Counted from the first letter of the stretch, positions 4,758 through 56,699 are shown. The stretch: DNA of 64,000 nucleotides from Minisyncoccota bacterium (GCA_035546615.1 DASZWM010000005.1:40959-104958); one strand, 5' to 3'. Notes: generated by a model not told the origin, from the sequence alone. Made by a program: numbers and translations.

Positions 4758-7700
4758 GTGAGCTTCAAGTGCTTGAAGAAATATTTTTTTCTCCTTCCGC
4801 TGCTTGTTTTTATAGGTCCTGCGCCCTTTGTCATGGCCGCCCCCACGTTTCAAGTGGGGCCGATTTACCTCACTACGACAAGCGCGTCAAACCAAACCTG
4901 GCCCGTGCCTTCTGACTGGAACAATGCGAGCAACATCGTGCAGGTTATTGCGGCTGGAGGAGGCGGGGGCGGAGTCGCCAGCAACACGACGGGGAGCGGC
5001 GGGGGCGGCGGGGGCGGCGGATATTCAAAATCGACAAATATTACCCTTTCCGGTTCATCGGTAACGTATCGTCTTGCGCCCGGCGGCGCCGGCGGAGGAT
5101 CGTCGGCTGCGGTTGCCGGAGGCGATGCATGGTTTAACGGCACCACATGCGCGGCTGCCTCCGTCTGCGCGAAAGGCGGAGGGGCAGGGGGCGCAGGCAC
5201 AGGCGGAGGGGGAGGCGCCGCGGGCGCAGGCGGGCCGGCTACAGGAGGAGTCGCGTCAGGCACCGGCTCAATAAAAAATAACGGCGGCGCAGGCGGGGCA
5301 GGCACAGGTGTTTCCGCCGGCGGCGGAGGGGGCGGCGCGGGCGGCCCAAACGCCGCCGGCGGGACTGGCAATCGCACCAATGGCGGGCAAGGGGACGGCA
5401 CTGCAGGCGGCGCCGGCGGGATGACAAGCCTCATCAGGGCCGCGTCTGCTGGAAGCCCAGGAACTGAATTTTCATCCTCGCCCGCGTACGGGTCCGGCGG
5501 CGGCGGCGGAGGTTCTAGATACGCAGCGGACGCGGCAGCGGGAGGCACGTACGGCGCGGGCGGCGGCGGAGCTTTTGCTGCCTCCTCCGGTACCCTCCGC
5601 CGCGGAGGAGCCGGCGCTCCCGGGCTTATTGTGATTAATTACAGCGCACCTCTTACCGTTTCCATTACCGCGCCGACCAACAGCGGCAACGCATGTATTG
5701 GCACGCCCGGTGCATTTACCATCAGCCGCAACGGGCCGGCAACTTGGCCTGCAGTGCCGGTTGATCTTATATACGGCGGAAGCGGGAGCACCGCGGCTGC
5801 GGGGATAGACTACTCCGCTGCTGCGACAACGGTCACCATACCGGCAAATACCATGTCTATAACGCTTCCCATTACCGCGCTTCAAAAAACATCGGGCGGC
5901 AGCACTACGCTCAAGGCGACCATAGCCGCATCCTCGGCCTATTCCGTCGGTACGCCAGCGAGCGCCACAATAGTTATTAACAATGGGACTCCGGCGATTG
6001 AGACAGTCGCCCCCTACACGATCGCTCCTTTTGCTGCTTACCCATTGCCCTACAATGGCTACATTTATCACCAAAATGGCGGTTCCGGCTACACTAATCC
6101 ATTTGCCACTCCCGCAAGCATTCTTAATACATGGATCAGCAATAGCCCTTCGCCCCAACTATGCGGCGCCAACGGCGGTACGGCCGGTATATCGCTTCCT
6201 AGTGACACGGCACAGGGCGTATGCATGGGTCCTAATTTCTCCGGCACTGTAGCAGGCACCCGGGTTGCGGTCCTGCAGGCGGTAGCGCAGACTGCAGGCA
6301 TTCCTCCGGTTAATGTCGGCCTCGATCTCACGAATGTCAAAAAAACAAATCCTTGCAACACTTCAACAACGCACTGGGCGTACGCTACTGCGCCGACACA
6401 AAATACGCCCGCCGCGACGCTTAAGGTCCCTAAATACACACCGGTCCAGTTCTCTTATCAATGTTTGCCGAACCAGAATTATGTTTGGTTTAACGCCGCA
6501 TGCCAAGGCGCTTACATTATTAGCTGCCTTAGCTGGACGCTTGTTACCGATGGCGACCTCAATGTCCAGACAGCGGATCGAGCGTGGTACAAGGGCACTG
6601 AAACGGCGAACCTTATCGACAGTTCTACGCAGACATTCAGCAATTCGCAGAGCGTTACGCTCCAATGCGGCGGCTATCAGCCTCAAGAAGGGATTCCCGC
6701 AAACGGCGGTTCTCCGCCAGCTGCATCCTCCGGCACTGCTCCTACTGGAGGCAGCTACACGGTATACGGTATGCAGAATCCTTCCTATCGGCAGCCGCAA
6801 ATACAAGTTGACGTACAGACATGCTCGGATCCTACCGCTATCGTACAGGGCGGTGCGTGCGTTCCGTGCAATACGGTAACTTCGGGCAGTTATCGTTCGG
6901 GTAATACCTGCGTCTTGTATCCGCCCCCGACGGCGACTATCCAAGCCAATAACGCCGGTTTTCAAGCGGCAGACAGCAGCGGCAACAAGAACGGAAAATT
7001 AGTTTCAGTTGGGGCGGGACAGCAAGTAACTGTAGCCGCCACGTATGCTGGCAGTACCAATCAAACTCAAAAAACCGTCTTTATTACTGCCGCAGGTTCT
7101 GGCGTATGGACCGTGCCAAGCGATTGGAACAGCGCCAATAACAGCATCGAGGTTATAGGCGGCGGCGGCACGGCGGCTTTTACGGGAGGCCGAGGCGGCG
7201 GGGGCGGCGGCGGCGCGTATTCAAAAAAGACTAATATTTCCCTCACGCCTGGCGCGCCTGTGACATATAGGGTGGGTCAAGGTGCGGCCCAAGGGAGTCC
7301 GGCCGCTCCGGGTGACGATACTTTTTTTAACCGGACCGCCGGTTCCTCAAATACCTGCGCCGATACGGTTTCGGTATGTGCCAAGGGCGGAAACAGCGGC
7401 AATGGCAACAATGGTGGAGCTGGAGGCGCTGCGAGTGGCGGCGTCGGCACTGTTAAATATTCGGGGGGCGCCGGCGCTTACGGCGATAATAACAATTCCG
7501 GCAACGGCGGCGGCGCAGGAGGTCCCAACGGGAATGGTCAAGCGGGAGACAGTGGCGGCGCAGGGGATGCGGGGCTTGGCGGCGCGGGCAGCGGTTGTGG
7601 CAACCCACCTGCGGCTGGGGGGAATGGTGCCGAGTGGATTGCTACCAATGTGTGGAGTGGCACTGCATACACGGGCGCAACGCCGACGGGCGGCTCCGGC

Positions 7701-8594
7701 GGGGGCGGCGGGTGCCGCTCATCCATTGCCGCTCCGGGCGGTAACGGCGGTTTGTATGGCGGCGGAGGCGGCTCCGGCGGAGGCAGCCAGAGCAATGAAG
7801 GAGTCGGGGCTCAGGGCATTATCGTAATCAAATATACCTCAACCGGCGACCCTCTTGAGGCTACCGCTATCAATTGCGACTCGGGATGCGATTCACAGGA
7901 CGGTGATACTGTTAACTGTAACCTTGTTGCTCCTCCCAATCCGCCGGCGGCTCCTGATCCAAACTGTTGGCGGAAACCCGATGCGACAAAGACGTATACC
8001 TTTACGCCGGCATCAGCAGACGCGGGAAAGACGTTTGTATTTTCCGCACAGGCAAAAACTTTTAACTACATCAACTATAACGGCTACGCTACCGTGCAGG
8101 TGCGGGTATGCCCGATCGGTCAGGGAACGGACGGCAACGGCGGATGTATTGCGGACGCATGCACCAACAATATCGTATTCCCAGGCAGCCAGACGACAGT
8201 ACCCGCAGGATGTACGGGTAATCCGGACAATACGTGCAGCGTGCCCACCGGCTATGCGTTCAACGGCGCGGCCTGCGTCCCTTCAGCTCCGTCGGTTCCG
8301 ACCCTTAGCCAAAACTCATTTACCGCCACCCGCGTACGTATGGGGGCGGCATCGACGCTTTCATGGAACATACCGGGTATGGCGAGCGGCATTACATGCG
8401 ATATCAGTCCTGCGGATAAATTGCAGAGCCCGATGCCTGCCTGGACAAGCGGCTCTACTTGGATCGGCTCGGTACAGACGACCAGCATATACGGGCCCAC
8501 CAAATATACGCTCACGTGCACTAACAGCACGACCGACCCGCCGGCCACCCGCAGCGTCATCGTCAACATCATCCCTGCGTATCAGGAGATATAG
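4758..8594 (+). CDS. Giant secreted glycine-rich surface protein (paralog 2) with two Gly-rich beta-solenoid-like modules, Cys-rich middle region and conserved C-terminal IPAYQEI domain
   Basis: 1278-aa ORF with GTG start; signal peptide MSFKCLKKYFFLLPLLVFIGPAPFVMA; Gly-rich module (TWPVPSDWN..NI.VI..GGGGG...GGGGGGYSK.TNI.L....VTYR...G...G.IVI.Y) duplicated at ~4896-5643 and ~7100-7840; middle and C-terminal regions homologous to the 1174-3003 protein. Confidence 0.75.
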   Translation: MSFKCLKKYFFLLPLLVFIGPAPFVMAAPTFQVGPIYLTTTSASNQTWPVPSDWNNASNIVQVIAAGGGGGGVASNTTGSGGGGGGGGYSKSTNITLSGSSVTYRLAPGGAGGGSSAAVAGGDAWFNGTTCAAASVCAKGGGAGGAGTGGGGGAAGAGGPATGGVASGTGSIKNNGGAGGAGTGVSAGGGGGGAGGPNAAGGTGNRTNGGQGDGTAGGAGGMTSLIRAASAGSPGTEFSSSPAYGSGGGGGGSRYAADAAAGGTYGAGGGGAFAASSGTLRRGGAGAPGLIVINYSAPLTVSITAPTNSGNACIGTPGAFTISRNGPATWPAVPVDLIYGGSGSTAAAGIDYSAAATTVTIPANTMSITLPITALQKTSGGSTTLKATIAASSAYSVGTPASATIVINNGTPAIETVAPYTIAPFAAYPLPYNGYIYHQNGGSGYTNPFATPASILNTWISNSPSPQLCGANGGTAGISLPSDTAQGVCMGPNFSGTVAGTRVAVLQAVAQTAGIPPVNVGLDLTNVKKTNPCNTSTTHWAYATAPTQNTPAATLKVPKYTPVQFSYQCLPNQNYVWFNAACQGAYIISCLSWTLVTDGDLNVQTADRAWYKGTETANLIDSSTQTFSNSQSVTLQCGGYQPQEGIPANGGSPPAASSGTAPTGGSYTVYGMQNPSYRQPQIQVDVQTCSDPTAIVQGGACVPCNTVTSGSYRSGNTCVLYPPPTATIQANNAGFQAADSSGNKNGKLVSVGAGQQVTVAATYAGSTNQTQKTVFITAAGSGVWTVPSDWNSANNSIEVIGGGGTAAFTGGRGGGGGGGAYSKKTNISLTPGAPVTYRVGQGAAQGSPAAPGDDTFFNRTAGSSNTCADTVSVCAKGGNSGNGNNGGAGGAASGGVGTVKYSGGAGAYGDNNNSGNGGGAGGPNGNGQAGDSGGAGDAGLGGAGSGCGNPPAAGGNGAEWIATNVWSGTAYTGATPTGGSGGGGGCRSSIAAPGGNGGLYGGGGGSGGGSQSNEGVGAQGIIVIKYTSTGDPLEATAINCDSGCDSQDGDTVNCNLVAPPNPPAAPDPNCWRKPDATKTYTFTPASADAGKTFVFSAQAKTFNYINYNGYATVQVRVCPIGQGTDGNGGCIADACTNNIVFPGSQTTVPAGCTGNPDNTCSVPTGYAFNGAACVPSAPSVPTLSQNSFTATRVRMGAASTLSWNIPGMASGITCDISPADKLQSPMPAWTSGSTWIGSVQTTSIYGPTKYTLTCTNSTTDPPATRSVIVNIIPAYQEI

Positions 8595-8634
8595 CGGGAG
8601 GAGGAATTTTGCTCCGCTTAGCACACAAGCGCAA

Positions 8635-8658
8635 AACCTGCCGCAGGGCAGGTTGTTG
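8635..8658. terminator. Bidirectional rho-independent terminator
   Basis: Hairpin cctgccgcagggcagg followed by ttgttg; lies between the 3' end of the giant-protein gene and the 3' end of the minus-strand tRNA-Arg. Confidence 0.55.
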
Positions 8659-8667
8659 CGTCTAGTG

Positions 8668-8739
8668 TGCTCCCGGTAGGAATCGAACCTACATCACGAA
8701 CTCCGCAAGCTCGTGTCCTATCCATTGAACGACGGGAGC
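8668..8739 (-). tRNA. tRNA-Arg (anticodon read as GCG)
   Basis: Reverse-complement cloverleaf: acceptor gctcccg/cgggagc, D-arm identical to the 931 tRNA (gttc-aatggata-ggac), anticodon stem cgagc/gttcg (one G-U) with loop ttGCGga, T-arm gtagg-ttcgatt-cctac. Confidence 0.7.
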
Positions 8740-8781
8740 GCTCAATAACTCCTTGAGCTTACAACGAAAATTAGCTTTTTT

Positions 8782-9252
8782 CTAGAGGCCGAAGATCTCG
8801 GCTACGTGCTCGCCCACGTGCGGGCCCTGCTCCTCTTCCTGCACCCGGGTTTTGAGATGCTCGCGCACGTCGGCGCCCTGCTGGGCGCTGTCGAGTATCA
8901 AAGAGAAGTGGGGAGCAAGAACTCCGCGCATTGTCATGAAAAGCCGGGGATTTTCCTGGTCATGCTCGACCCAGAACGTGTGTATGGCTGAATAGGGGTA
9001 GCGCGTGCCGTCTACCGACAGGCCGCGGTCGTCCATATGGACCGAGTGCTCGCGGGGGCCGCGCGCGGCGAGAAAGCCTATCGACAGCGCGCCTATTGCG
9101 ATAATAACGGCGAAAAGAAAGTTGCCGAAGAATACCGCAGCTACTCCGCCCGCGAGCGCGATAACGCCCAAGCCCCAGTACCAGTCGGTGCTGCGCTCGC
9201 GGTGCTCGTGCGTCGTAACGCTCCATTCCATGCGCTCCGTAGTGCCTGGCAT
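8782..9252 (-). CDS. Hypothetical small membrane protein (2 TM)
   Basis: 156-aa ORF with two adjacent hydrophobic helices (GLGVIALAGGVAAVFFGNFLFAVIIAIGALSIGFLAA); no recognisable family. Confidence 0.5.
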   Translation of the reverse strand: MPGTTERMEWSVTTHEHRERSTDWYWGLGVIALAGGVAAVFFGNFLFAVIIAIGALSIGFLAARGPREHSVHMDDRGLSVDGTRYPYSAIHTFWVEHDQENPRLFMTMRGVLAPHFSLILDSAQQGADVREHLKTRVQEEEQGPHVGEHVAEIFGL

Positions 9253-9296
9253 ATCGTCTTCAGTATACCATCACGCAACTGGTATACTTTTAAGAT

Positions 9297-10109
9297 ATGA
9301 AGACAATCAAACTAAACGAGGATGCGAATATCCCCGTGCTCGGCCTGGGCACGTGGCAGCTGACGGGGGATGCGTGCACGGAAGCCGTCCGCTACGCGCT
9401 TGAGCTCGGCTACACGCATATCGATACCGCCGATGTGTATGGTAATCATGCGGAAGTGGCGAGCGGCGCTAAAGCCTCCGGCGTCGCACGGGAGAAGTTC
9501 TTCCTTACCACCAAGGTGTGGCGCACCGACTTGGCGCACGACCCGCTTGTGGAGAGCGCGGACCGCTTTCTTGAAGAGCTCGCTACCGACTATATCGACC
9601 TCCTCCTTATTCACTGGCCTAACAGCGAGATTCCTGTCGAGGCCAGTCTTAGGGCGATGGAGGAGCTTAAGCGCGCCGGAAAGGTGCGCGCGATAGGCGT
9701 TTCTAACTTTACTGTTCATCACCTTAAGGACGCACTTGAAGCCGGGGTTGAAATAACCAACAACCAAGTAGAGATACGTCCCGCCTTCGCGCAAAAAGAA
9801 CTGCGTGATTTCTGTGCTTCCAAGGATATTTCCGTAACCGCGTACTCGAGCCTGCGCGGCGGTGCTAATGAATTGCCGCTTATCGTGGAATTGGCAGGGA
9901 AGTACGGCAAGACTGCTTCGCAGATAATCCTCAACTGGGTTGTGGCTCGCGGCATGATAGCGATACCTAAGAGCTCGCACCCGGAGCGCATTAAAGAGAA
10001 TTTCGAGTCAGTAGATTTCGAAATGGAAGAAGCGGACCTCGCGCGCATAGATGCGCTGCCGGAAGGGAAGCGGGTTAATACGCCGGCCTTCGGGGAATTC
10101 GATTATTGA
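9297..10109 (+). CDS. Aldo/keto reductase (2,5-diketo-D-gluconate reductase-like)
   Basis: 270-aa ORF; AKR signatures LGLGTWQ, IDTADVYGNH, LLLIHWP, IGVSNF. Confidence 0.85.
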   Translation: MKTIKLNEDANIPVLGLGTWQLTGDACTEAVRYALELGYTHIDTADVYGNHAEVASGAKASGVAREKFFLTTKVWRTDLAHDPLVESADRFLEELATDYIDLLLIHWPNSEIPVEASLRAMEELKRAGKVRAIGVSNFTVHHLKDALEAGVEITNNQVEIRPAFAQKELRDFCASKDISVTAYSSLRGGANELPLIVELAGKYGKTASQIILNWVVARGMIAIPKSSHPERIKENFESVDFEMEEADLARIDALPEGKRVNTPAFGEFDY

Positions 10110-10583
10110 GAAAAGTTTTTGCCGATGGCATTCCACGGCAGTTTCATGCCTGATTCCGGAAACTTGTCGAGAATCCATTGTACGTAAGTATTACTGTTGG
10201 GACCACGCAAGCCGTATTTCTCTTTAAAAGGATATTGATCTACAGAAGAAGTAATACAGTCAGCCATTCGCTCCGCAGTGGAACCATCTGCACCTTCGAC
10301 AGTATCTACTATTGCAGAATTCCAGTGGAAGTAATGAACAAAAGCGAATGTCTGTATCCCGTCGGTAGGGGAAAGTAAGTCTGCGTCGAGATGGCCCCAG
10401 CTTTTGTCGCGAATCTGTCGTCCGAATCCTATTTCCCAGCGTGATATAGCGCCTTTTTATTCACGACGAACCAAGGATGGATAGCAAAGTTAAAAGGGAT
10501 ACAGGCAGGACATGCAAAAAGAAATACCTGATATAAGTCTTTCTTTAAGAGTTTCTGGAACTCGGCTTCGGTCATATTTCCAA
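10104..10583 (-). pseudogene. Frameshifted hypothetical gene (two overlapping frames joined at an A5 run)
   Basis: Minus strand: frame a reads MTEAEFQKLLKKDLYQVFLFACPACIPFNFAIHPWFVVNKKALYHAGK* and frame b reads ...KGAISRWEIGFGRQIRDKSWGHLDADLL...NSNTYVQWILDKFPESGMKLPWNAIGKNFSQ*. The frames overlap by ~12 codons at the homopolymer aaaaa (plus ttttt 10454-10458), and a 1-nt shift there would give one ~160-aa protein. The region is AT-rich. Confidence 0.45.
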
Positions 10584-10587
10584 ACTT

Positions 10588-10675
10588 TGGCGGAGGGGGT
10601 GAGATTCGAACTCACGGTACCTTGCGGTACTCTTGTTTTCAAGACAAGTGCACTCGGCCTCTATGCGACCCCTCC
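10588..10675 (-). tRNA. tRNA-Ser (anticodon TGA), CCA encoded
   Basis: 88-nt class-II tRNA: acceptor ggagggg/cccctcc, anticodon stem cttgt/acaag with loop ctTGAaa, long variable arm taccgcaaggtacc, T-arm gtgag-ttcgaat-ctcac, 3' gCCA encoded. Confidence 0.8.
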
Positions 10676-11155
10676 CTGGCGATTTTGTATCTTACCACTG
10701 TACCAGTTATTTTCTAGGTAATGTTCCTCTGAGTGACAATTTGGACAAAGTAGTTCCAGGTTATCCAGCGTATTGTGTTGCCGGTTTCTGTCTTTGTGAT
10801 GTACGTTTAATATCTCATACCTTGCATATCCGCATCGTTCGCAAATGGGGCCTCGCAGTTTCAACAGACGAAGTTTCAAGCCTCGCTGGTATACAACTTT
10901 GTCCTTAGGCGCTCGACCTTTGTATTTTATTCCTGCACGGTTGGTATTGGCGCAGCCTCTGCTACATGTATTTTTGTTTGCACTAGAGAGAATAGGTTTA
11001 CCGCAGACAACACAAGGGTGTTCTTTTCGAGTAGCTAGTCCATAACAGGTTTGACTGCAAAATACTCGACCTTGTTTAATTTGACCCGGTCGTCTATAGA
11101 TTGGTTTGCCACAAACTGTGCATGCAGTATTGGGATTTCTTTTATACTCATCCAC
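10661..11155 (-). CDS. HNH endonuclease with Cys4 zinc-ribbon motifs
   Basis: 164-aa ORF; HNH motif NVHHKDRNRQHNTLDNLELLCPNCHSEEH plus three CxxC pairs. AT-rich; the 3' end overlaps the tRNA-Ser 5' end by ~15 nt. Confidence 0.75.
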   Translation of the reverse strand: MDEYKRNPNTACTVCGKPIYRRPGQIKQGRVFCSQTCYGLATRKEHPCVVCGKPILSSANKNTCSRGCANTNRAGIKYKGRAPKDKVVYQRGLKLRLLKLRGPICERCGYARYEILNVHHKDRNRQHNTLDNLELLCPNCHSEEHYLENNWYSGKIQNRQGGVA

Positions 11156-11214
11156 TAATCCAGTATACCAATTCTTAGTATGGCAGGCAATACACTTTTT
11201 CCTGTCCGTAGGCT

Positions 11215-11889
11215 ATGCTCGAAGGGAACATGGATATCCAGATTGAGCGGCTGAAGAAAAATATAGACAAATTACAGAAGACGCATGGCCACCCGGACTA
11301 TACAGCCTTGTACGGGACTGGCTGTATCGATCATCCGGACCTTTTTCTTATTCTTATGAATCCGACCGCACGCAATATATCCGTGCACAAGGATTGGAAG
11401 GGTCTTAAGGCTTCCTGGCTCGGGACAAAGAACTTTTGGAAGATACTCTATAAACTCGAACTGATCTCGGCCAAAACTTTTGCAGCTACCCAGGAACGCG
11501 CCCCGGCCGAATGGGACAATGATTTCTGCGTCGCGGTGTATACGGAGCTGGCGCGCAACAAGGTTTTTATCACCAACTTAGGCCGTTCAACCCAGCCTGA
11601 CGCTCGACCACTCCCTGACGCGGTATATAAAGCGTGCGTTGCGCTCACCCAGGAAGAGATAAACGCAGTGAAGCCTAAAGTGGTCGTTCTCTTCGGGAAT
11701 CAAGTAAGCTCAGCTTTGCTTGAAACACCGATCAAGGTTTCTGAAACCCGCAAGAAACGTTTTGATCTTGAGATAGGCGGTACGGTGTATCCCGTATATG
11801 CCACCTATTACCCGGTCGGCATGGGATTTATGAATGCCGATAAGACGATCGAAGATGTTCGCTGGATTCGCAAGGCGCATTCACGATAG
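11215..11889 (+). CDS. Uracil-DNA glycosylase superfamily protein (putative)
   Basis: 224-aa ORF; motif-1-like LILMNPTARN (xNP motif as in MUG/SMUG families) and C-terminal YYPVGMG at the position of the HPS-type motif 2; VVVLFGNQ core. Confidence 0.45.
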   Translation: MLEGNMDIQIERLKKNIDKLQKTHGHPDYTALYGTGCIDHPDLFLILMNPTARNISVHKDWKGLKASWLGTKNFWKILYKLELISAKTFAATQERAPAEWDNDFCVAVYTELARNKVFITNLGRSTQPDARPLPDAVYKACVALTQEEINAVKPKVVVLFGNQVSSALLETPIKVSETRKKRFDLEIGGTVYPVYATYYPVGMGFMNADKTIEDVRWIRKAHSR

Positions 11890-11900
11890 ACTTACTTAGC

Positions 11901-12323
11901 ATGAAATATCTCGGCATAGATTACGGGACCAAGCGCATCGGCGTAGCTGTCTCTGATGATGGGGGCGTGGTAGCATTTCCCCTCACGACCCTGAAGAGCG
12001 ATAGGGACGCGGCAGGGGAGGTTGCCGCGCTTGCCAAGAGCCGCGAGGTCGGAACAATCGTCATCGGCGAGTCTCGCAATTTTCAGAACGAGCCCAACCC
12101 TGTGATGGAGGATATTGAGCAGTTCAAAAAAGACATTGCCAACCTGACAGGTCTGCCTGTGGAATACGAACGGGAGTTTTTTACCAGCACGCAGGCGGCG
12201 CGGCAGTTTGCGCCCGACGGCTCGCGCAAAGACAATCCTTCGCAGGAAAAGCTGGATGCATCGGCTGCAGCCTTGATTTTACAGGGGTATTTAGACAGAA
12301 TAGGTGCTAAGAAGCCCATATAG
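11901..12323 (+). CDS. ruvX: Holliday junction resolvase-like YqgF/RuvX
   Basis: 140-aa ORF; N-terminal LGIDYGTKRIGVAVSD and IVIGES motifs typical of YqgF. Confidence 0.8.
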   Translation: MKYLGIDYGTKRIGVAVSDDGGVVAFPLTTLKSDRDAAGEVAALAKSREVGTIVIGESRNFQNEPNPVMEDIEQFKKDIANLTGLPVEYEREFFTSTQAARQFAPDGSRKDNPSQEKLDASAAALILQGYLDRIGAKKPI

Positions 12324-17428: not shown

Positions 17429-17502
17429 GGTGGTCGTAGCTCAATCGGTAGAGCCCTGGTTTGTGGTACCAGTTGTTGTGGGTTCGAGTCCCATCGACCA
17501 CC
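17429..17502 (+). tRNA. tRNA-His (anticodon GTG) with genomically encoded G-1
   Basis: Acceptor gtggtcg/cgaccac, extra 5' G (17429) opposite discriminator C, anticodon stem ctggt/accag with loop ttGTGgt, T-arm gtggg-ttcgagt-cccat. Confidence 0.8.
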
Positions 17503-17506
17503 CAAG

Positions 17507-30816: not shown

Positions 30817-32463
30817 TTGTGCATGATCCGTGAGGCATTAGAGAAGGCTATCGCCGCGGCGCTGGGAGAACTCGGCGCCGGCAGTGTTTCGTTTACCGTA
30901 GAGCGCCCGGGCTCCATGGACCATGGCGACTACGCCACCAACGCGGCGCTTGCCGCGGCAAAAGCGCTCAAGAAGAACCCGAAAGAAGTGGCGCAGATGC
31001 TGCTGACCATGCTCAGCAGCATCGAGGGCATAAAAAAAACAGAAATCGCGGGCGCGGGATTCATAAACTTTTTTATTTCGCGCGAAGCGGTTGCAAAAGA
31101 AATCTCGCGCGCCGCGCAGGACGCGGAGTGGGGAAGCAACAGTTTGTATAAAGGAAAGACGGTGATGGTGGAATATACCGACCCGAATCCGTTCAAGGAG
31201 TTCCATATTGGGCATCTGATGAGCAACGCGATAGGCGAGAGCGTTGCGCGAGTACTTGAAATCTCCGGCGCAAAAGTTATCCGCGCTAACTACCAGGGCG
31301 ATGTAGGGCCGCATGTGGCAAAGGCTATCTGGGGAAAGATGCAGAAGCCGGAATTAAGCTGGGGCGAAACGTATGTGCTCGGCAACGCCGAATATGAAGC
31401 GCATAAGGCGGATATCGATATGATCAACAAGCAGGTCTACGAGAAAAGCGACGACAAGGTCGCTGAGCTATATGCCGCGGGACGCAAGCTTTCGCTGGAG
31501 CACTTTGAAGAGCTGTATACAGCGCTCGGCACGAAATTCGACCGTTACTTTTTTGAAAGCGAGACGACGCCCCTAGGCACGGCTCTTGTAAAAAAGCATC
31601 CCGAGCTGTTCGTGGAAAGCGAGGGGGCAAGGGTATTTCGCGGCGAGGAAGAGGGGTTGCATACCCGCGTTTTTATCACTTCGCAGGGCTTGCCGACGTA
31701 TGAAGCGAAGGACCTCGGACTTCTGGACGTAAAGAGCAAAGAGAAGCTCGACGTGTCCATCACCGTTACCGCGAACGAGCAGAACGAGTACTTTAAGGTA
31801 GTTCTTGCGGCTGCCGCGCATATCGCGGAACTTGCGGAGATAGCCGGAAAGACGAAGCACGTCTCGCACGGCATGATGCGCTTCGCCGAGGGCAAAATGT
31901 CCTCGCGCAAGGGGAACGTGATCACCGGCGAGTCGCTCTTGGAAGACCTTAAGGACGCCGCGAAAGAAAAGATGGAGGGCAGGGAACTGGCGGATGCCGA
32001 AAAGACTGCCGAGGCGGTTGCGGTGGGAGCGATAAAGTATTCGGTGCTCAAGCAGGGAAGCGGTCGCGACATTATATTCGACCCGGAGAAGTCGCTGAGC
32101 CTCGAAGGCGACTCGGGACCGTATATACAGTACGCGCACACCCGCGCGCTGTCGCTGCTTAAGAACGCCGGCCGCGAAGGCGTTGAACCAGGAACGGATG
32201 ACAAGCCTGCTGCAGCAAATGCGCTCGAGCGGCTTATTCTGCATTTTCCAGACGTGCTTTCCCGCGCAGCGCAAGAGTTGGAGCCGCATCACATAACGAC
32301 GTACGTTACGGAACTCGCTTCAACGTTCAACAGCTGGTACGCGAGCGAGCGGATTATCGGCGGCACCAATCCGCAGTACGGAATTCTCATCGCGCAGGCG
32401 GTGGAAGCGACGCTCAAAAAAGGCCTGCATGCGCTTGGCATCCCAGCGCCCGAGGAGATGTAA
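30817..32463 (+). CDS. argS: Arginyl-tRNA synthetase
   Basis: 548-aa ORF; class I HIGH (FHIGHLMSNAIGES), KMSK-like GKMSSRKG, ArgRS N-terminal add-1 domain pattern. Confidence 0.9.
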   Translation: MCMIREALEKAIAAALGELGAGSVSFTVERPGSMDHGDYATNAALAAAKALKKNPKEVAQMLLTMLSSIEGIKKTEIAGAGFINFFISREAVAKEISRAAQDAEWGSNSLYKGKTVMVEYTDPNPFKEFHIGHLMSNAIGESVARVLEISGAKVIRANYQGDVGPHVAKAIWGKMQKPELSWGETYVLGNAEYEAHKADIDMINKQVYEKSDDKVAELYAAGRKLSLEHFEELYTALGTKFDRYFFESETTPLGTALVKKHPELFVESEGARVFRGEEEGLHTRVFITSQGLPTYEAKDLGLLDVKSKEKLDVSITVTANEQNEYFKVVLAAAAHIAELAEIAGKTKHVSHGMMRFAEGKMSSRKGNVITGESLLEDLKDAAKEKMEGRELADAEKTAEAVAVGAIKYSVLKQGSGRDIIFDPEKSLSLEGDSGPYIQYAHTRALSLLKNAGREGVEPGTDDKPAAANALERLILHFPDVLSRAAQELEPHHITTYVTELASTFNSWYASERIIGGTNPQYGILIAQAVEATLKKGLHALGIPAPEEM

Positions 32464-32465
32464 CT

Positions 32466-33068
32466 ATGAAAATACTTGGCCGAGGCTGGCAATATACTAC
32501 CTACGATATAGGAAATGGTCGCGTGCTTAAAAAGTATAATTCGTTCCTAGTAGCTTATGCGGTAATGCTCAATGCCTGTGTCAAATCAGATAGGCTTTCG
32601 ATTTTTAAAATTCCGCAATACCACAGAGGCTGTAAAGAATTTGCACGAAGCTCTCTAAAGAAAGCGACCAGTGGCCTGCTTGATAGTTGGATGGTTGGCA
32701 ATCCAAAGCCGCTAAATGAATTGGATTACGAACAAGACAAGCTCATTCCGCTCCATGAACGCATCAACGGAATTAGTTTAGAAAAGGCAAAAGGGTATAT
32801 TGACCGTTTTGTTGATTTCAATAAAACTCTTTTGGAGAGAGGTCTCATCGACAAAAGTTTTAATATTACTAAGAACTTCGGCATAGATTCCGAAGGAAGG
32901 ATTGTTTTGATGGATCTTGGTGAATTGCACTCAGAAAAGCTAGCTATAGAAAAACAACGACGTAAACGGATGTGGACGTACCCATATGTAGTAAATTGCA
33001 TCTTAGATGAGGAAGTACGTGCCTACTATGTTCAGCGGATGGACGAAAGCTTTGGATTAGCCGCATAG
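32466..33068 (+). CDS. Hypothetical protein, small atypical protein-kinase-like (AT-rich islet)
   Basis: 200-aa ORF, markedly AT-richer than neighbours; Gly-loop-like LGRGWQYTTYDIGNGRVLKK, catalytic-loop-like LIDKSFNITKNFGID, DFG-like RIVLMDLGE. Confidence 0.35.
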   Translation: MKILGRGWQYTTYDIGNGRVLKKYNSFLVAYAVMLNACVKSDRLSIFKIPQYHRGCKEFARSSLKKATSGLLDSWMVGNPKPLNELDYEQDKLIPLHERINGISLEKAKGYIDRFVDFNKTLLERGLIDKSFNITKNFGIDSEGRIVLMDLGELHSEKLAIEKQRRKRMWTYPYVVNCILDEEVRAYYVQRMDESFGLAA

Positions 33069-41650: not shown

Positions 41651-43081
41651 ATGGCCGACAAGAAAACGTTTTACCTCACGACGCCGATTTTCTATCCCAA
41701 CGCGAATCTGCATTTGGGCCACGCGTACGTAACAACCTTGTGCGACGTTCTTGCCCGCTACCATCGTTTGGCGGGGGACAAGACGTACTTTTTGACCGGT
41801 TCGGACGAGAACGCGCAAACCGTATTACAGGGAGCAAAGAAGGCCGGCAAAGACCCGGAAGTATTTCTGGAGGAGATTGTCACTAATTTCAAAAAGCTGT
41901 TCGCGAGCCTGAATATTTCTCAGGACCAGTTCATCCGAACATCCGACAGGCAAGTGCACTGGCCCGGCGCCATCGCTCTCTGGAAAAAACTGGATGTCGC
42001 GGGTGACATATACAAAAAAGAGTACGAGGGCCTGTACTGCGTCGGTCATGAGGCATTCATAACCGAAAAGGAATTGGTGGATGGCAAATGCCCCGACCAC
42101 GGTACTGTGCCGGAACTAGTCAAAGAGGAAAATTACTTCTTCCGCCTTTCCAAATACACGGATGCTATAAGAAAAAAGATAGAGTCAGACGAACTCAGTA
42201 TCGTTCCTACCACCCGAAAAAAGGAAATCCTCTCTTTTCTGGAGGAAGGGCTGCAGGATGTAAGTTTTTCTCGTCCTAAGACTTCTAACGCGGTGGGCAT
42301 TCCCGTTCCCGGGGACGACTCACAGGTGATGTATGTGTGGTGTGATGCGCTTTCAAACTACATAACAGCGCTTGGGTACGGTAAGGATGATGAATCGCTC
42401 TACAAGGAGTTTTGGCCCGGTATACATGTTGTGGGAAAGGACATCCTGCGCTTCCATGCCGCAATCTGGCCGGGCATGCTCATGTCCGCCGGTATTCCGC
42501 TTCCGCAGAAAATATTCGTGCACGGAATGATAATTTCCGGCGGTAAAAAGATGTCCAAGACTCGCGGGAATGTCATTGATCCGGTTGAACTGTTGAGCGA
42601 ATACGGAACTGACGCGGTACGCTACTTCCTTTCGCGCCACGTCTCGCCTATGGAGGACAGCGAGCTTACCTTAGAAGGGCTTAAGGATATCTATAATGCC
42701 GATTTGGCGAATGGTCTTGGCAACCTAGCTGCGCGCATCATGCAGCTCGCACAAACACACCTTGCTGAGCCCGTGGTCGTAGAATTTACCGGGTATCCAG
42801 AAGAATATACGAATGCCCTTGAACGCATGGAAATCAATAAAGCCGCTGATTTCGTCTGGAGCCGCATCAAGAGCCTAGACCAGCAAATAACGGACACGAA
42901 GCCCTTTACGGTAGTGAAAGAGAATCCCGAAGAAGGAAGGAAGCTTATCGCCGCGCTGGTGCGCGAGCTTGCGGCTGTAGACCTTCTTATCGAGCCGTTT
43001 ATGCCCGAAACCAGCAAGAAGATAATCGACGCCATCATGGCGAACAAAAAGCCCGAGAATCTTTTCCCTCGCAAAGACTAA
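41651..43081 (+). CDS. metG: Methionyl-tRNA synthetase (catalytic core, no C-terminal tRNA-binding domain)
   Basis: 476-aa ORF; HLGH (PNANLHLGHAY), KMSKS (KMSKTRGNV); ends after the anticodon-binding domain. Confidence 0.9.
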   Translation: MADKKTFYLTTPIFYPNANLHLGHAYVTTLCDVLARYHRLAGDKTYFLTGSDENAQTVLQGAKKAGKDPEVFLEEIVTNFKKLFASLNISQDQFIRTSDRQVHWPGAIALWKKLDVAGDIYKKEYEGLYCVGHEAFITEKELVDGKCPDHGTVPELVKEENYFFRLSKYTDAIRKKIESDELSIVPTTRKKEILSFLEEGLQDVSFSRPKTSNAVGIPVPGDDSQVMYVWCDALSNYITALGYGKDDESLYKEFWPGIHVVGKDILRFHAAIWPGMLMSAGIPLPQKIFVHGMIISGGKKMSKTRGNVIDPVELLSEYGTDAVRYFLSRHVSPMEDSELTLEGLKDIYNADLANGLGNLAARIMQLAQTHLAEPVVVEFTGYPEEYTNALERMEINKAADFVWSRIKSLDQQITDTKPFTVVKENPEEGRKLIAALVRELAAVDLLIEPFMPETSKKIIDAIMANKKPENLFPRKD

Positions 43082-43083
43082 GT

Positions 43084-43641
43084 ATGAGAATTTGTATTTT
43101 CGGCGATAGTATCACTTGGGGAGAGGGAGATAAGGAAATCGGCGGATGGGCTGATCGTCTAAAGGTCCATTTAATGGAACGGGATTTTAGCGTTTACAAT
43201 CTTGGAATTAGAGGGGACACAAGCGCTGGCGTTTTAGATCGGTTCAAACAAGAAATTGCTGCACGCAGCCGAAAGCTGGGAGGTATCTTGTTCGCGATAG
43301 GAATTAACGATTGCCTTCAGGGAGTTTCCGTAGAAGAGTTCCAGAATAATATGCGAACCCTTATGGAGCTATCTCCGGAGTTTGCGGACACAACTATAAT
43401 GATAGGCCTAACAAGAACCACGGATACCTCGGCCAATGAAAAGATAGAGCAATTTAATAAGGAGCTGGAGGTCCTCTGCAGAGAAAGAAAAGTTTTGTTT
43501 ATTCCCATGTTCGACCTTTTCGCAACAGATGATTTAACGAAAGACGGTCTCCATCCGAGTCCGACTGGCTACAAGAAGATGTTCGAGCGTATCAAACTTG
43601 TTCTAGAACCGCTTCTGCCTGTAATGACTGTCGACCAATGA
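43084..43641 (+). CDS. SGNH/GDSL-family hydrolase
   Basis: 185-aa ORF, AT-rich; block I GDSIT, block III GINDCL, block V DGLHPS. Confidence 0.7.
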   Translation: MRICIFGDSITWGEGDKEIGGWADRLKVHLMERDFSVYNLGIRGDTSAGVLDRFKQEIAARSRKLGGILFAIGINDCLQGVSVEEFQNNMRTLMELSPEFADTTIMIGLTRTTDTSANEKIEQFNKELEVLCRERKVLFIPMFDLFATDDLTKDGLHPSPTGYKKMFERIKLVLEPLLPVMTVDQ

Positions 43642-44414
43642 AGCTATTCGACGCCCATTGCCACTTGCAGCTTTCGCAATTCGACGCGGACCAGGCGGAG
43701 GTGCTTTCGCGCATGCGCGATAAGGAGATGGGCGCCATTGTTATCGGCGTAGACCTGGCAACGAGCAGGGAAGCGGTCGCGCTGGCTGAAGCTCACGACT
43801 TCTTGTGGGCTGCGGTAGGGCTGCACCCGAACGATAATCCGAAGGAGGAGTTCGACACGACGGCTTTTGAAGAGTTGGCGAAGCATCCCAAGGTCGTCGC
43901 AGTAGGGGAATGCGGGCTCGATTATTTCCGAAGCGGCGGCACTCCTGAGGAAAAGCTGGCCCAGAAAGAGCGGTTTGAAAAGCAGATAGCGCTGGCCATT
44001 AAGGTAGGAAAGCCTCTGATAATCCATTGCCGCAACGCGCACGACGACATGCTTGAGATCTTATCCTTATATTCTGCAGAATTAGAGAGTAAGGAGTTGC
44101 GGGCGGTTATTCATTTTTGCACCGTCGATGGGGCGCTTGCCCAGAAATATATCGACCTGGCCTGCTATCTTTCGTTCCCCGGGCCCATTACCTATACCGA
44201 CATGTACGACGATTCGATCAAAGTCGCGCCGATGGATAGGATTCTTGTCGAAACCGACTCACCATTTGCCGCCCCGGTGCCGTATCGCGGCCAGCGCAAC
44301 GAGCCCGCATACGTAGAGGACGTGGTAAAGAAAATCGCAGCTCTTAAGGGCGTCTTGGTCGAAGAAATGGCGGCCCAGATAGTCAAAAACAGTCAGGAAG
44401 TCTTCAAACTGTAG
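43638..44414 (+). CDS. tatD: TatD-family metal-dependent DNase
   Basis: 258-aa ORF; DAHCHL, GLHPND, GECGLDY, IHCRNA, ETDSPF motifs. Confidence 0.85.
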   Translation: MKLFDAHCHLQLSQFDADQAEVLSRMRDKEMGAIVIGVDLATSREAVALAEAHDFLWAAVGLHPNDNPKEEFDTTAFEELAKHPKVVAVGECGLDYFRSGGTPEEKLAQKERFEKQIALAIKVGKPLIIHCRNAHDDMLEILSLYSAELESKELRAVIHFCTVDGALAQKYIDLACYLSFPGPITYTDMYDDSIKVAPMDRILVETDSPFAAPVPYRGQRNEPAYVEDVVKKIAALKGVLVEEMAAQIVKNSQEVFKL

Positions 44415-55682: not shown

Positions 55683-56021
55683 ATGCTGTCTTCTTTCATT
55701 TGGTTTTTAGTTCCAACTGGGATTGCTTATATTATTGCCTATTGGATTTGTCAGAAAGTCGGAATCTTCCTTTATCGTCATTTACATAAATTTTCCTTGG
55801 CAGCACTTGGTACTATATTTTTATTCCTCATCACATTTCCTATTTTAATGGTAAATGGATGGTCCGTATCGGAAGCCATTATAGAAACGCGAGAGGGTAA
55901 CGATGCAGTGATTATCAGTTTGCTTGTTGGAGGGACTCCCACCCTTCTTGTTGCATGTGTCCTATTGATAACCGGCATAATCCTTTTATTGCGGATGCTA
56001 TATAAAATCCGTATAATCTAG
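55683..56021 (+). CDS. Hypothetical small membrane protein (AT-rich islet)
   Basis: 112-aa ORF with 3-4 TM helices; AT-rich. Confidence 0.4.
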   Translation: MLSSFIWFLVPTGIAYIIAYWICQKVGIFLYRHLHKFSLAALGTIFLFLITFPILMVNGWSVSEAIIETREGNDAVIISLLVGGTPTLLVACVLLITGIILLLRMLYKIRII

Positions 56022-56079
56022 CATCGCGCTTTAAGTTTTTTGACAATCAGTAAAGATTAGCGTAAAAAGCAGTATTAAC

Positions 56080-56685
56080 ATGAAGACATTTTTAATAAAA
56101 GTGGGGAAGATAGCTGCTTGGACGTTCGGCGTCCTGGTTGTCTTATTTATCGCCCTGGTCATATATCGCATTCCAGCGGTAGGCCAGAAAGAAAAGGCAG
56201 CGGAGGCCGTAACGCGCATCCATGCGGCGGAACTCACACTCGATACGGTAATGGGGAATCGTTTGCCGCTCCCGCCCAATGAGGAGGAAAATAACGCGAC
56301 GGTCGCGGGGATAGATAACAACGGAAACGGAATCCGCGACGACGTGGAGCTCGCAATATTCGCCAAGTACCCGAACTCCGCTAAGATTCGCGCAGCGGAA
56401 CTGCAATATGCCCTAGCCCTCCAGCTAATGATTACGGAAGTTTTTGACAAAGAGACTTGGATTGCAGCTGCTGAGATGCTTTCTCGTGGAGATGCATGTA
56501 TTGGACTTACAGTTCCTAATACTGACTTAACTACATACCTAAAAAGGTCAAAAGAAGTTGAGGATACCGTGCTTAATATTAGTATTCGTAAGAATGCAGA
56601 AGATGAGGCCTATAATTTTATAACAAGCTACGGTCTTCCGAATACTGATTTGTGCGATGTTGACTTAAATACACTTTCAGGTTAA
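56080..56685 (+). CDS. Hypothetical membrane-anchored protein
   Basis: 201-aa ORF; N-terminal TM anchor; AT-rich; no family motif. Confidence 0.45.
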   Translation: MKTFLIKVGKIAAWTFGVLVVLFIALVIYRIPAVGQKEKAAEAVTRIHAAELTLDTVMGNRLPLPPNEEENNATVAGIDNNGNGIRDDVELAIFAKYPNSAKIRAAELQYALALQLMITEVFDKETWIAAAEMLSRGDACIGLTVPNTDLTTYLKRSKEVEDTVLNISIRKNAEDEAYNFITSYGLPNTDLCDVDLNTLSG

Positions 56686-56699
56686 ATTCACCCCGTTTT

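Follow-up and report, generated by a model that had tools for sequence, protein, structure and literature searches.

We analysed a 64,000-nucleotide stretch of genomic DNA from a Minisyncoccota bacterium (GCA_035546615.1, DASZWM010000005.1:40959-104958; hereafter the window), focusing on an open reading frame (ORF) for a 164-amino-acid (aa) HNH endonuclease (10661..11155, minus strand, GTG start) that runs into a tRNA-Ser(UGA) gene. The tRNA gene, recognised with Rfam at 10588..10675 on the minus strand, is the constant 3′ neighbour of the ORF: the last 15 nt of the ORF, stop codon included, lie inside the 5′ end of the tRNA, and the GGVA tail of the peptide is the translated tRNA 5′ end. An extended -10 promoter box, TGGTATACT (11162..11170, minus strand), recognised by promoter scan and locus comparison, ends 6 nt ahead of the GTG start. 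We consider here whether this ORF and its promoter form a mobile cassette.

The segment 10104-11155 has a GC content of 0.444 compared with a window mean of 0.567 (standard deviation 0.048 in 1052-bp windows) and falls in the lowest 1 % of equal-sized windows. A profile in 200-bp windows bore out the AT-rich islet of the original prediction, with the one correction that low GC reaches on to ~11900, over an adjoining UDG-family gene (GC 0.47-0.55).

Features of the HNH protein

The predicted Zn-ribbon HNH nuclease with a 3′ end overlapping tRNA-Ser was confirmed by family profile, by its CxxC modules and by the overlap described above. The ORF scored 29.8 bits against Pfam PF01844 (cut-off 21.4, E = 6.6e-7, residues 105-145) and matched the phage family phrog_1271 (E = 4e-20). 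The ZorE and HEase HNH models of PADLOC matched the same stretch as PF01844; PADLOC gave generic HNH and homing-endonuclease matches only and assigned no defence system to the protein.

Alignment identified two N-terminal CxxC...CxxxC modules followed by a zinc-bound HNH core with a CxxC/CxxC pair. Forty columns were invariant among 30 aligned sequences, including C12/C15/C33/C37 and C48/C51/C64/C68 of the zinc modules and C105/C108, H119, H120, N132, C137/C140, H141 and H145 of the core. A structure model with a predicted local distance difference test score (pLDDT) of 78.6 placed strands at 117-120 and 133-136 and a helix at 138-149. When this model was compared with the PDB using Foldseek, HNH-domain structures headed the list, none of them at E ≤ 0.001 (best, EcoKMcrA 6ghc, E = 0.012), and neither Foldseek nor a PDB profile search returned anything beyond generic HNH cores or any information on the twin zinc ribbons or the target. 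By family profile and conserved active site the ORF is predicted to encode a bona fide HNH / His-Me finger nuclease.

A Patescibacteria family with a fixed address

A similarity search with the HNH protein recovered over 500 relatives, ~160 aa long and ~60-80 % identical, which form a tight family restricted to Patescibacteria. In a scan of one genome per species a relative is encoded by at least 267 genomes, and all HNH loci returned came from the Patescibacteria or candidate phyla radiation (CPR), including Paceibacterota and the Kaiser-, Nomura-, Adler-, Taylor-, Azam-, Uhr-, Moran- and Daviesbacteria groups, which places the organism of the window in the same radiation. When 1.84 billion cluster representatives were searched by profile, 54 clusters reached E ≤ 1e-30 and 914 reached E ≤ 1e-10.

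In all 78 species-representative loci that could be judged, tRNA-Ser(UGA) lies directly 3′ of the HNH gene on the same strand, and the same placement was found in each of the seven HNH-positive metagenome loci of a second sample, anchored on the neighbouring RuvX gene (85/85 in total). Among the 78 loci the tRNA start ranges from 93 nt ahead of the HNH stop codon to 100 nt beyond it, the ORF extending into the tRNA, as in the window, in ~35. The commonest neighbourhood has PilM, tRNA_bind and RuvX on one side and a 157-aa membrane protein (TM157), tRNA-Arg, rpsT and RuvA on the other. Within it the HNH-tRNA pair occurs in both orientations between the RuvX and TM157 flanks, and the two genes stay linked in ~16 unrelated contexts. 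The family thus shows one trait of a free-standing homing endonuclease gene (HEG), occupation of the same specific site in different genomes. Because the tRNA gene is the sole sequence common to all contexts, part of it probably belongs to the recognition site of the nuclease.

The tRNA-Ser(UGA) gene itself, with or without an HNH gene, can face either way between RuvX and the gene for the 157-aa membrane protein (loci L006-L165), and in some HNH-less loci (L092, L127) its end lies just 1-2 nt ahead of the RuvX start. Judged from gene order, the two orientations imply repeated local inversion. Two loci, L010 (~7998-9308) and L045 (~7998-8981), have an HNH frame without a stop codon before the tRNA that stays open for 500-800 nt beyond it; the HNH mRNA of these loci would be without a stop codon if the tRNA were excised from the same transcript. 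One Nomurabacteria contig (L049) carries two distant HNH-like matches (886-1724, 27-32 % identity) ~6 kb upstream of its tRNA-linked HNH gene.

More distant relatives were found in contigs of the IMG/VR viral collection at 25-53 % identity, with 38 of 42 non-redundant loci lying in tRNA regions. A co-oriented tRNA starts within -120..+150 nt of the stop codon in 15 of these loci, where 4.2 would be expected. The closest IMG/VR relatives sit 5′ of tRNA-Ser(GGA) or tRNA-Ser(CGA), while others precede Arg(UCU), Thr(UGU), Met, Ala and Ser-GCU tRNAs in the tRNA arrays of large contigs (L166-L237). This distribution suggests that distant subfamilies of twin-Zn-ribbon HNH proteins may be tuned to different tRNAs. 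The isolated phages of INPHARED gave distant relatives only (≤ 34 % identity over ≥ 64 % of the protein); for the one in Vibrio phage nt-1, the record of the surrounding stretch lists no RNA features, which is uninformative.

Occupied and empty sites in related genomes

The first 80 species loci had been chosen for having an HNH gene, a sample biased by construction. The uniform HNH/tRNA-Ser/RuvX synteny of these loci and of three long contigs, together with HNH identity that tracks flank identity in close pairs, at first favoured a conserved, housekeeping-like gene; the synteny looked conserved because all of the loci had been selected for HNH. The RuvX-anchored sample is independent of HNH presence, and here the gene was found in only 7 of 55 relatives with a judgeable tRNA-Ser(UGA) site, the remaining 48 sites being empty. 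Among the near relatives of the window, L094 was not judgeable, with just 137 nt upstream of its tRNA. After this sampling, and after comparison with the near-identical genome described below, the housekeeping-like gene was dropped as the main reading. Gene order conserved across relatives would have spoken against an insertion at this locus, and it was not what the RuvX-anchored sites displayed.

The closest RuvX relatives of the window in this sample (L086, 77 % identity, L087 and L089-L092) are without HNH, and a further near relative, L093, has an HNH protein 78 % identical to that of the window. Close pairs of HNH-positive and HNH-negative loci were found in seven separate lineages at RuvX identities of 76-96 %. 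Six of these pairs were aligned, and in three (L009/L126, L033/L098 and L017/L097) homology of the flanks halts just before the HNH gene and resumes at or after the tRNA. The cleanest case is L009/L126, in which 21 bp of L126 stand in place of an insert of ~500 bp. A second trait of free-standing HEGs, absence of the gene from the homologous site in close relatives, is therefore also seen in this family.

Comparison with a near-identical genome lacking the HNH gene

The nearest DUF3750 homologue led to a genome (GCA_037975565.1, hereafter L239) that is closely similar to the window. Proteins of the two share 96 % identity for RuvX and tRNA_bind, 94 % for VTT, 98.7 % for TM157 and 91.5 % for AKR, and their flanking DNA is 85-88 % identical (blastn). 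L239 has 41 bp between RuvX and tRNA-Ser(UGA), with neither an HNH nor a UDG gene; blastn aligned the DUF3750 gene and tRNA at 69 % identity and found no match for HNH and UDG. The small mobile, homing-like insertion beside a tRNA that was originally predicted is supported by this 41-bp junction, by the empty sites and by the constancy of the site.

The junction of intergenic DNA and tRNA-Ser in L239 reads ...AAAAAGTGTATTGTCTTCTATGA|GGAGAGGTGGCAG... and has a promoter-like motif, AAAAAGTGTATTG, just before the tRNA. HNH-less relatives have this motif 9-13 nt before the tRNA 5′ end, while in the window it lies upstream of the HNH start (11188-11200, minus strand), an arrangement shared by L080. 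Survival of the motif upstream of HNH places the cassette between the former promoter-like element of the tRNA and the tRNA 5′ end. The DNA that carries the motif in the window (11178..11229, minus strand) appears to be retained ancestral RuvX/tRNA-Ser intergenic DNA, as judged by comparison with L239, L086, L087, L090-L092 and L080.

The window and L239 also differ around the insertion point. Their tRNA-Ser genes are identical at only 70 of 88 positions (79.5 %), with 17 differing positions, one length difference and compensated changes in the stems, whereas Arg-GCG, Val and Leu-GAG tRNAs are 100 % identical and Arg-UCU is identical at 73/73 aligned positions. For DUF3750 the identity amounts to 61 % at the protein and 69 % at the DNA level, compared with 85-88 % in the flanking DNA. 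The low identities of tRNA-Ser and DUF3750 relative to the flanks would fit co-conversion, although tRNA-Ser alleles also differ in some HNH-negative pairs. Relative to L239 the variable segment as a whole spans 10110..11900 (no strand; between the 3′ end of AKR and the start of RuvX), is of lower GC and contains the DUF3750 pseudogene, tRNA-Ser, the HNH cassette and UDG. The corresponding interval of L239 holds tRNA-Ser, DUF3750, a 115-aa gene, HhH-GPD, a 66-aa gene and endonuclease V, the last four being extra genes between DUF3750 and AKR. As far as the two sequences tell, the ~1.8-kb interval differs from L239 by replacement and not by insertion alone, having been exchanged in one of the two lineages.

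A second tRNA of the window, tRNA-His(GUG) at 17430-17503, is unrelated in sequence to its counterpart in L239 (1389-1464), with ~66 % identity, and may be another tRNA locus with allele replacement.

Expression signals of the cassette

The HNH gene carries a conserved expression signal of its own. The pattern TGnTAnnnT-N6-start codon was identified in 82 of 88 HNH-positive loci, with GTG as the start codon in 69 and ATG in 13, and the box is exactly TGGTATACT in 61. Conservation ends right upstream of the box, which is kept across hosts of 30-60 % GC. A promoter scan of the window returned TTGCCT-17-TATACT with an upstream TG, the -35-like TTGCCT lying at 11185-11190. From the 6-nt spacing between box and start codon we infer that the HNH mRNA would be leaderless or nearly so. 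An earlier idea, that HNH is driven solely by a captured tRNA promoter, was dropped, since the cassette has its own invariant -10 box; the part that was kept is the old motif upstream.

The cassette may in turn serve the tRNA. In the window a candidate proximal tRNA promoter, the extended -10-like TGGTAAGAT (10689..10697, minus strand), lies 14 nt ahead of the tRNA, within the final HNH codons (tail SGKI). In 26 of 86 HNH-positive loci an extended -10-like box precedes the tRNA by 14-40 nt, compared with 1-5 of 86 for control windows inside the ORF, which suggests that the cassette often supplies a replacement proximal promoter to the displaced tRNA.

Inheritance, composition and tRNA-Ser alleles

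In 57 of 64 loci the HNH gene has a lower GC content at third codon positions (GC3) than its flanks, with a regression slope of 0.46 (r 0.72), and the window is the extreme case (HNH 0.35, flanks 0.70). The HNH gene thus follows host composition only halfway. Low GC at this locus is only partly a sign of foreignness, since lower GC3 is a family-wide trait of the gene.

HNH identity plateaus at 0.61 ± 0.035 for all deeper pairs of loci. The nearest neighbour by HNH is also the nearest by flanks in 14 of 50 loci, where ~1 would be expected by chance, and in only 8 of the 16 loci that have a close flank neighbour, discordant cases including L043, L056 and L077. These comparisons indicate what is probably a long vertical residence of the HNH gene with some horizontal replacement.

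The tRNA-Ser(UGA) gene is far more variable between close relatives than other tRNAs. Non-canonical D-arm alleles (…GCGCCGAATGGTAAGG… or …TCGGATAATGGTTATTC…; CCGAAT/CGGATA types) were found in 48 of 86 HNH-linked and 2 of 50 HNH-less tRNA-Ser genes. Within the RuvX-anchored sample the odd D-arm alleles amount to 4/7 and 3/49 respectively (p 0.003, with shared ancestry of the loci uncontrolled). The allele of the window is of a type found both with and without HNH. The enrichment is a hint of a possible immunity polymorphism.

A putative homing cassette at tRNA-Ser(UGA)

On the evidence of site, empty alleles and junctions, we consider it probable (roughly 65 %) that the HNH gene is a free-standing homing-type endonuclease cassette that homed at the 5′ flank of tRNA-Ser(UGA), with replacement of the flank. 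The cassette would comprise ~500 bp (~11177..10676, minus strand), in which an extended -10 promoter of its own is followed by a leaderless-type GTG start and the frame for a twin-Zn-ribbon HNH protein of 160 aa. Its hosts would be Patescibacteria (Paceibacteria and relatives), and its home site there the DNA 5′ of tRNA-Ser(UGA). In the proposed mechanism the nuclease recognises the DNA of HNH-less tRNA-Ser(UGA) loci and nicks or cuts it, and recombinational repair from an HNH-bearing allele then copies the cassette in. Repair would co-convert neighbouring DNA, namely the tRNA allele and, in the window, the DUF3750 allele also. The tRNA would stay functional because the insert lies in its 5′ leader, RNase P can trim any leader and the last HNH codons may often provide a new proximal -10 box.

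Several observations weigh against this interpretation. Homing would need donor and recipient alleles to come together in one cell, which is not readily accounted for in these bacteria. HNH identity tracks flank identity in close pairs (0.91/0.98 and 0.76/0.77), near-identical HNH genes were not seen in distant hosts (the best cross-lineage case has 0.80 HNH and 0.50 flank identity), which leaves recent horizontal transfer of the gene in doubt. Only 1 of 88 copies looks degenerate, with detection having required intact motifs, and a cycle of invasion, decay and loss predicts more. The patchy distribution can also arise by repeated precise loss. Similarity of tRNA-Ser is uncorrelated with that of HNH (partial Mantel p 0.52), and a co-phylogeny of the two was rejected for lack of signal in this test. 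Lastly, tRNA-Ser alleles are also strongly different between some HNH-negative pairs, and allele swapping is thus not strictly HNH-dependent. The degenerate copy is that at L123 (152-606), which matches in two overlapping pieces in different frames and is apparently frameshifted; such decay in itself speaks for homing.

A bolder form of the homing cassette, in which cassette and tRNA together act as a natural 'cleave-and-rescue' drive, is doubtful. The HNH nuclease would here cut the ordinary tRNA-Ser(UGA), presumably the sole gene of an essential isoacceptor, and the linked allele, with a re-written D-arm, acceptor or variable arm, would resist cutting and supply the function. A genome meeting the element would be either converted or lose its tRNA. 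Such a drive would explain the strict linkage through inversions, the enrichment of odd D-arms, the variability of this tRNA and the replacement promoter. In a more speculative variant, which nothing supports, the adjacent tRNA transcript would serve the nuclease as cofactor or guide.

We regard it as unlikely that HNH is instead a resident host nuclease coupled to tRNA-Ser(UGA), for example by co-transcription with the tRNA, processing of the tRNA or its leader, regulation or defence, and is patchy through repeated loss in reduced genomes. The very strong conservation of the protein, with its 40 invariant columns, fits a resident gene, as does the tRNA linkage kept through inversions; the gene is nevertheless dispensable, as it is absent from 48 of 55 related loci and from the near-identical L239. 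Pseudogenes are almost unseen, but the losses would have to be base-pair precise in many lineages, restoring each time a compact promoter-tRNA junction. HNH identity follows the flanks in close pairs with a nearest-neighbour concordance well above chance, yet the two kinds of nearest neighbour differ in half of the loci for which a close flank neighbour exists. The correlation of HNH GC3 with that of the host (r 0.72) indicates long residence, while synonymous sites remain AT-rich relative to those of the hosts. Entry of the ORF into the tRNA in ~35 of 78 loci would tie expression to tRNA processing; however, the gene carries its own invariant promoter, and its relatives are scattered beside different tRNAs in phage-like contigs.

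Transfer RNA genes are classic integration sites, and the HNH protein matches phage families (phrog_1271) while the DNA 3′ of the tRNA varies between genomes (DUF3750, AKR, endonuclease V, HhH-GPD), but that HNH is a phage gene left over from an integrase-mediated island or prophage using tRNA-Ser as attachment site is highly improbable, as no integrase or other phage gene was found among the ORFs and Pfam matches of the segment and no direct repeat of the tRNA 3′ end, and HNH lies on the 5′ side of the tRNA, in just ~500 bp and with the ORF abutting the tRNA in an arrangement identical in at least 85 loci. A HEG encoded in a group I intron was rejected, as Rfam (E-value mode, 9900-12000) identified only the tRNA, which is continuous.

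The frameshifted DUF3750 gene

On the far side of tRNA-Ser from the insertion point, which lies between the old promoter-like motif and the tRNA 5′ end, the minus strand carries a DUF3750 gene (10103..10575) with a 1-nt deletion, otherwise intact and a divergent allele relative to L239. Its two fragments, 10429..10575 and ~10455..10103, join into a 157-aa protein that scored 76.1 bits against PF12570 (DUF3750; cut-off 25, E = 5.5e-21, profile positions 17-128/128). The joined protein aligns gap-free to nine intact homologues of 155-165 aa, with ...HPWFVVNKKGAISRWE... spanning the junction, and this alignment identifies the lesion as the loss of one A, from A6 to A5 (plus-strand T5, 10454-10458).

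Exact-product look-ups for both fragments gave no match, and the frameshift was confirmed through a Logan contig of the adjoining AKR gene (L242, run SRR12170516) that is 100 % identical over 9176-10616, A5 run included. An independent assembly with the same run argues that the frameshift is not the artefact of one assembler. ORF coverage of the window (greedy) is 0.89 despite 168 A/T runs of ≥ 5, and the window is not riddled with broken genes. The single-nucleotide frameshift at an A5 run that had been predicted is thus real. The accompanying suggestion that this neighbour is the target or the inactivated cargo of the insertion did not hold, as an intact DUF3750 gene lies just 3′ of tRNA-Ser in the HNH-less L239; DUF3750 was therefore there before the cassette and does not depend on it. 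The allele of the window may have arrived as a passenger when this segment replaced the older flank. The frameshifted gene is more likely a very recent pseudogene than a slippage-expressed one, and is neither a target nor a part of the machinery.

The split gene might alternatively still be expressed by -1 ribosomal slippage. Slippage at AAA-AAG pairs is known, for example from dnaX and from the IS911 type. The zero frame of the window reads AAT AAA AAG GCG (10450-10465, minus strand), a -1 slip from AAG to AAA yields the homologue-like ...VVNKKGAISRWE..., and the downstream residues that are invariant among DUF3750 homologues are all intact. We consider such slippage quite improbable, as the first position of the slippery heptamer is T and not A and all of the 253 DUF3750 homologues found are unsplit single ORFs of ~155-165 aa, without the split architecture of a programmed -1 frameshift; the shift is no feature of the family.

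The tRNA-Ser gene is also where two Logan contigs of one sample, L238 and L242, break off, with an overlap of only 14 nt (10603-10616). Repeated k-mers shared by tRNAs, or heterogeneity of strains at the hot spot, could explain the break.

Relation to known homing endonucleases

The nearest parallel to the cassette is SegB, a free-standing GIY-YIG homing endonuclease within the tRNA gene cluster of phage T4 that recognises a conserved tRNA-gene motif and drives both its own inheritance and that of adjacent tRNA genes (PMC2330249). Both are free-standing nuclease genes among tRNA genes, with a tRNA motif in the site of SegB and co-conversion of its neighbours, and these traits match the constant site, the empty alleles and the exchanged tRNA-Ser gene described here. 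They differ in nuclease class (GIY-YIG as against HNH with twin Zn ribbons), in genome (phage as against cellular chromosome) and in position, SegB lying between tRNAs of an array while the HNH cassette always abuts the 5′ end of one isoacceptor. SegB activity has been demonstrated experimentally; that of the HNH cassette is deduced from sequence comparison.

HNH homing endonucleases of phages, such as T4 MobE (PMC2790892) and I-HmuI (PDB 1u3e), share with the cassette an HNH core, small size, intergenic position, their own expression signals and patchy occurrence, and PHROG HNH families match the window protein. There is no sequence similarity outside the HNH core, I-HmuI is only a weak Foldseek match (E = 0.68), and Foldseek and PDB profile searches returned no solved structure with a counterpart of the twin N-terminal CxxC...CxxxC modules. 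EcoKMcrA (PDB 6ghc) is the best sequence and structure match to the C-terminal zinc-bound HNH, although it is weak (E 0.006-0.012) and confined to the core; JGI annotation names some members of the family 'McrA'. The window protein is without the N-terminal modified-cytosine reader domain of EcoKMcrA, and the cassette differs from restriction enzymes in its fixed tRNA site and insertion polymorphism. HNH genes also occur in the tRNA region of phage T5.

Within the same phylum, HNH homing endonucleases are known from group I introns of tRNA-Asn genes (position 35/36), where they are reportedly rare and patchy (PMC13011429). These too are selfish HNH elements hosted by tRNA genes in a patchy manner, but they are intron-encoded and sit in the anticodon loop of tRNA-Asn, whereas the cassette has no intron and lies in the 5′ flank of an uninterrupted tRNA-Ser(UGA). 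No description of the HNH/tRNA-Ser(UGA) arrangement was found in the literature searched, PMC13011429 included, a search whose coverage left out most subscription journals. The behaviour of the cassette appears to be that of a classic free-standing homing endonuclease, while the protein architecture, the address 5′ of tRNA-Ser(UGA), the promoter/GTG module and the location in CPR chromosomes appear to be new.

If the interpretation as a homing cassette is correct, the HNH genes would constitute a large homing-endonuclease family in the chromosomes of Patescibacteria, beyond phages and introns, that is undescribed in the literature searched. Its natural target, the 5′ region of tRNA-Ser(UGA), would be unusually well defined, with sister subfamilies that appear tuned to other tRNAs, and the specificities of these compact (~160 aa) nucleases could be read from hundreds of natural pairs of occupied and empty sites. 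The family would also provide a concrete case of what reshuffles tRNA loci in reduced genomes, where insertions, inversions and allele swaps gather round one tRNA. The conserved promoter and GTG-start module may inform on transcription and leaderless translation starts in uncultured CPR bacteria. For annotation, low GC and an HNH gene beside a tRNA would here mark a recombination hot spot and not a prophage.

Other features of the window

A UDG-superfamily gene (11230..11889, plus strand; Pfam UDG, 9.5e-8) separates the RuvX start from the old RuvX/tRNA-Ser intergenic DNA. It was found only in the window, being absent from 80 HNH-positive species loci, 80 RuvX-anchored loci and L239, and appears on this comparison to be a separate insertion specific to the window. 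Its true start is likely the ATG at 11230 and not the annotated ATG at 11215, because 11215-11229 is homologous to intergenic DNA of L239. L239 has other DNA-repair genes, HhH-GPD and endonuclease V, in the same hot spot.

Two tRNA-Arg genes of the window, tRNA-Arg(GCG) at 8667-8739 and tRNA-Arg(CCG) at 931-1003, lie on opposite strands with genes between them, including one for a 1278-aa Gly-rich repetitive protein (4758-8594, plus strand). The same two tRNA-Arg genes adjoin in relatives, for example at 7215 and 7498 in L001. Other 1-kb bins of low GC in the window are 32001-33000 (0.485), 42001-44000 (0.50) and 56001-57000 (0.439), the last having a GC content as low as that of the HNH islet.

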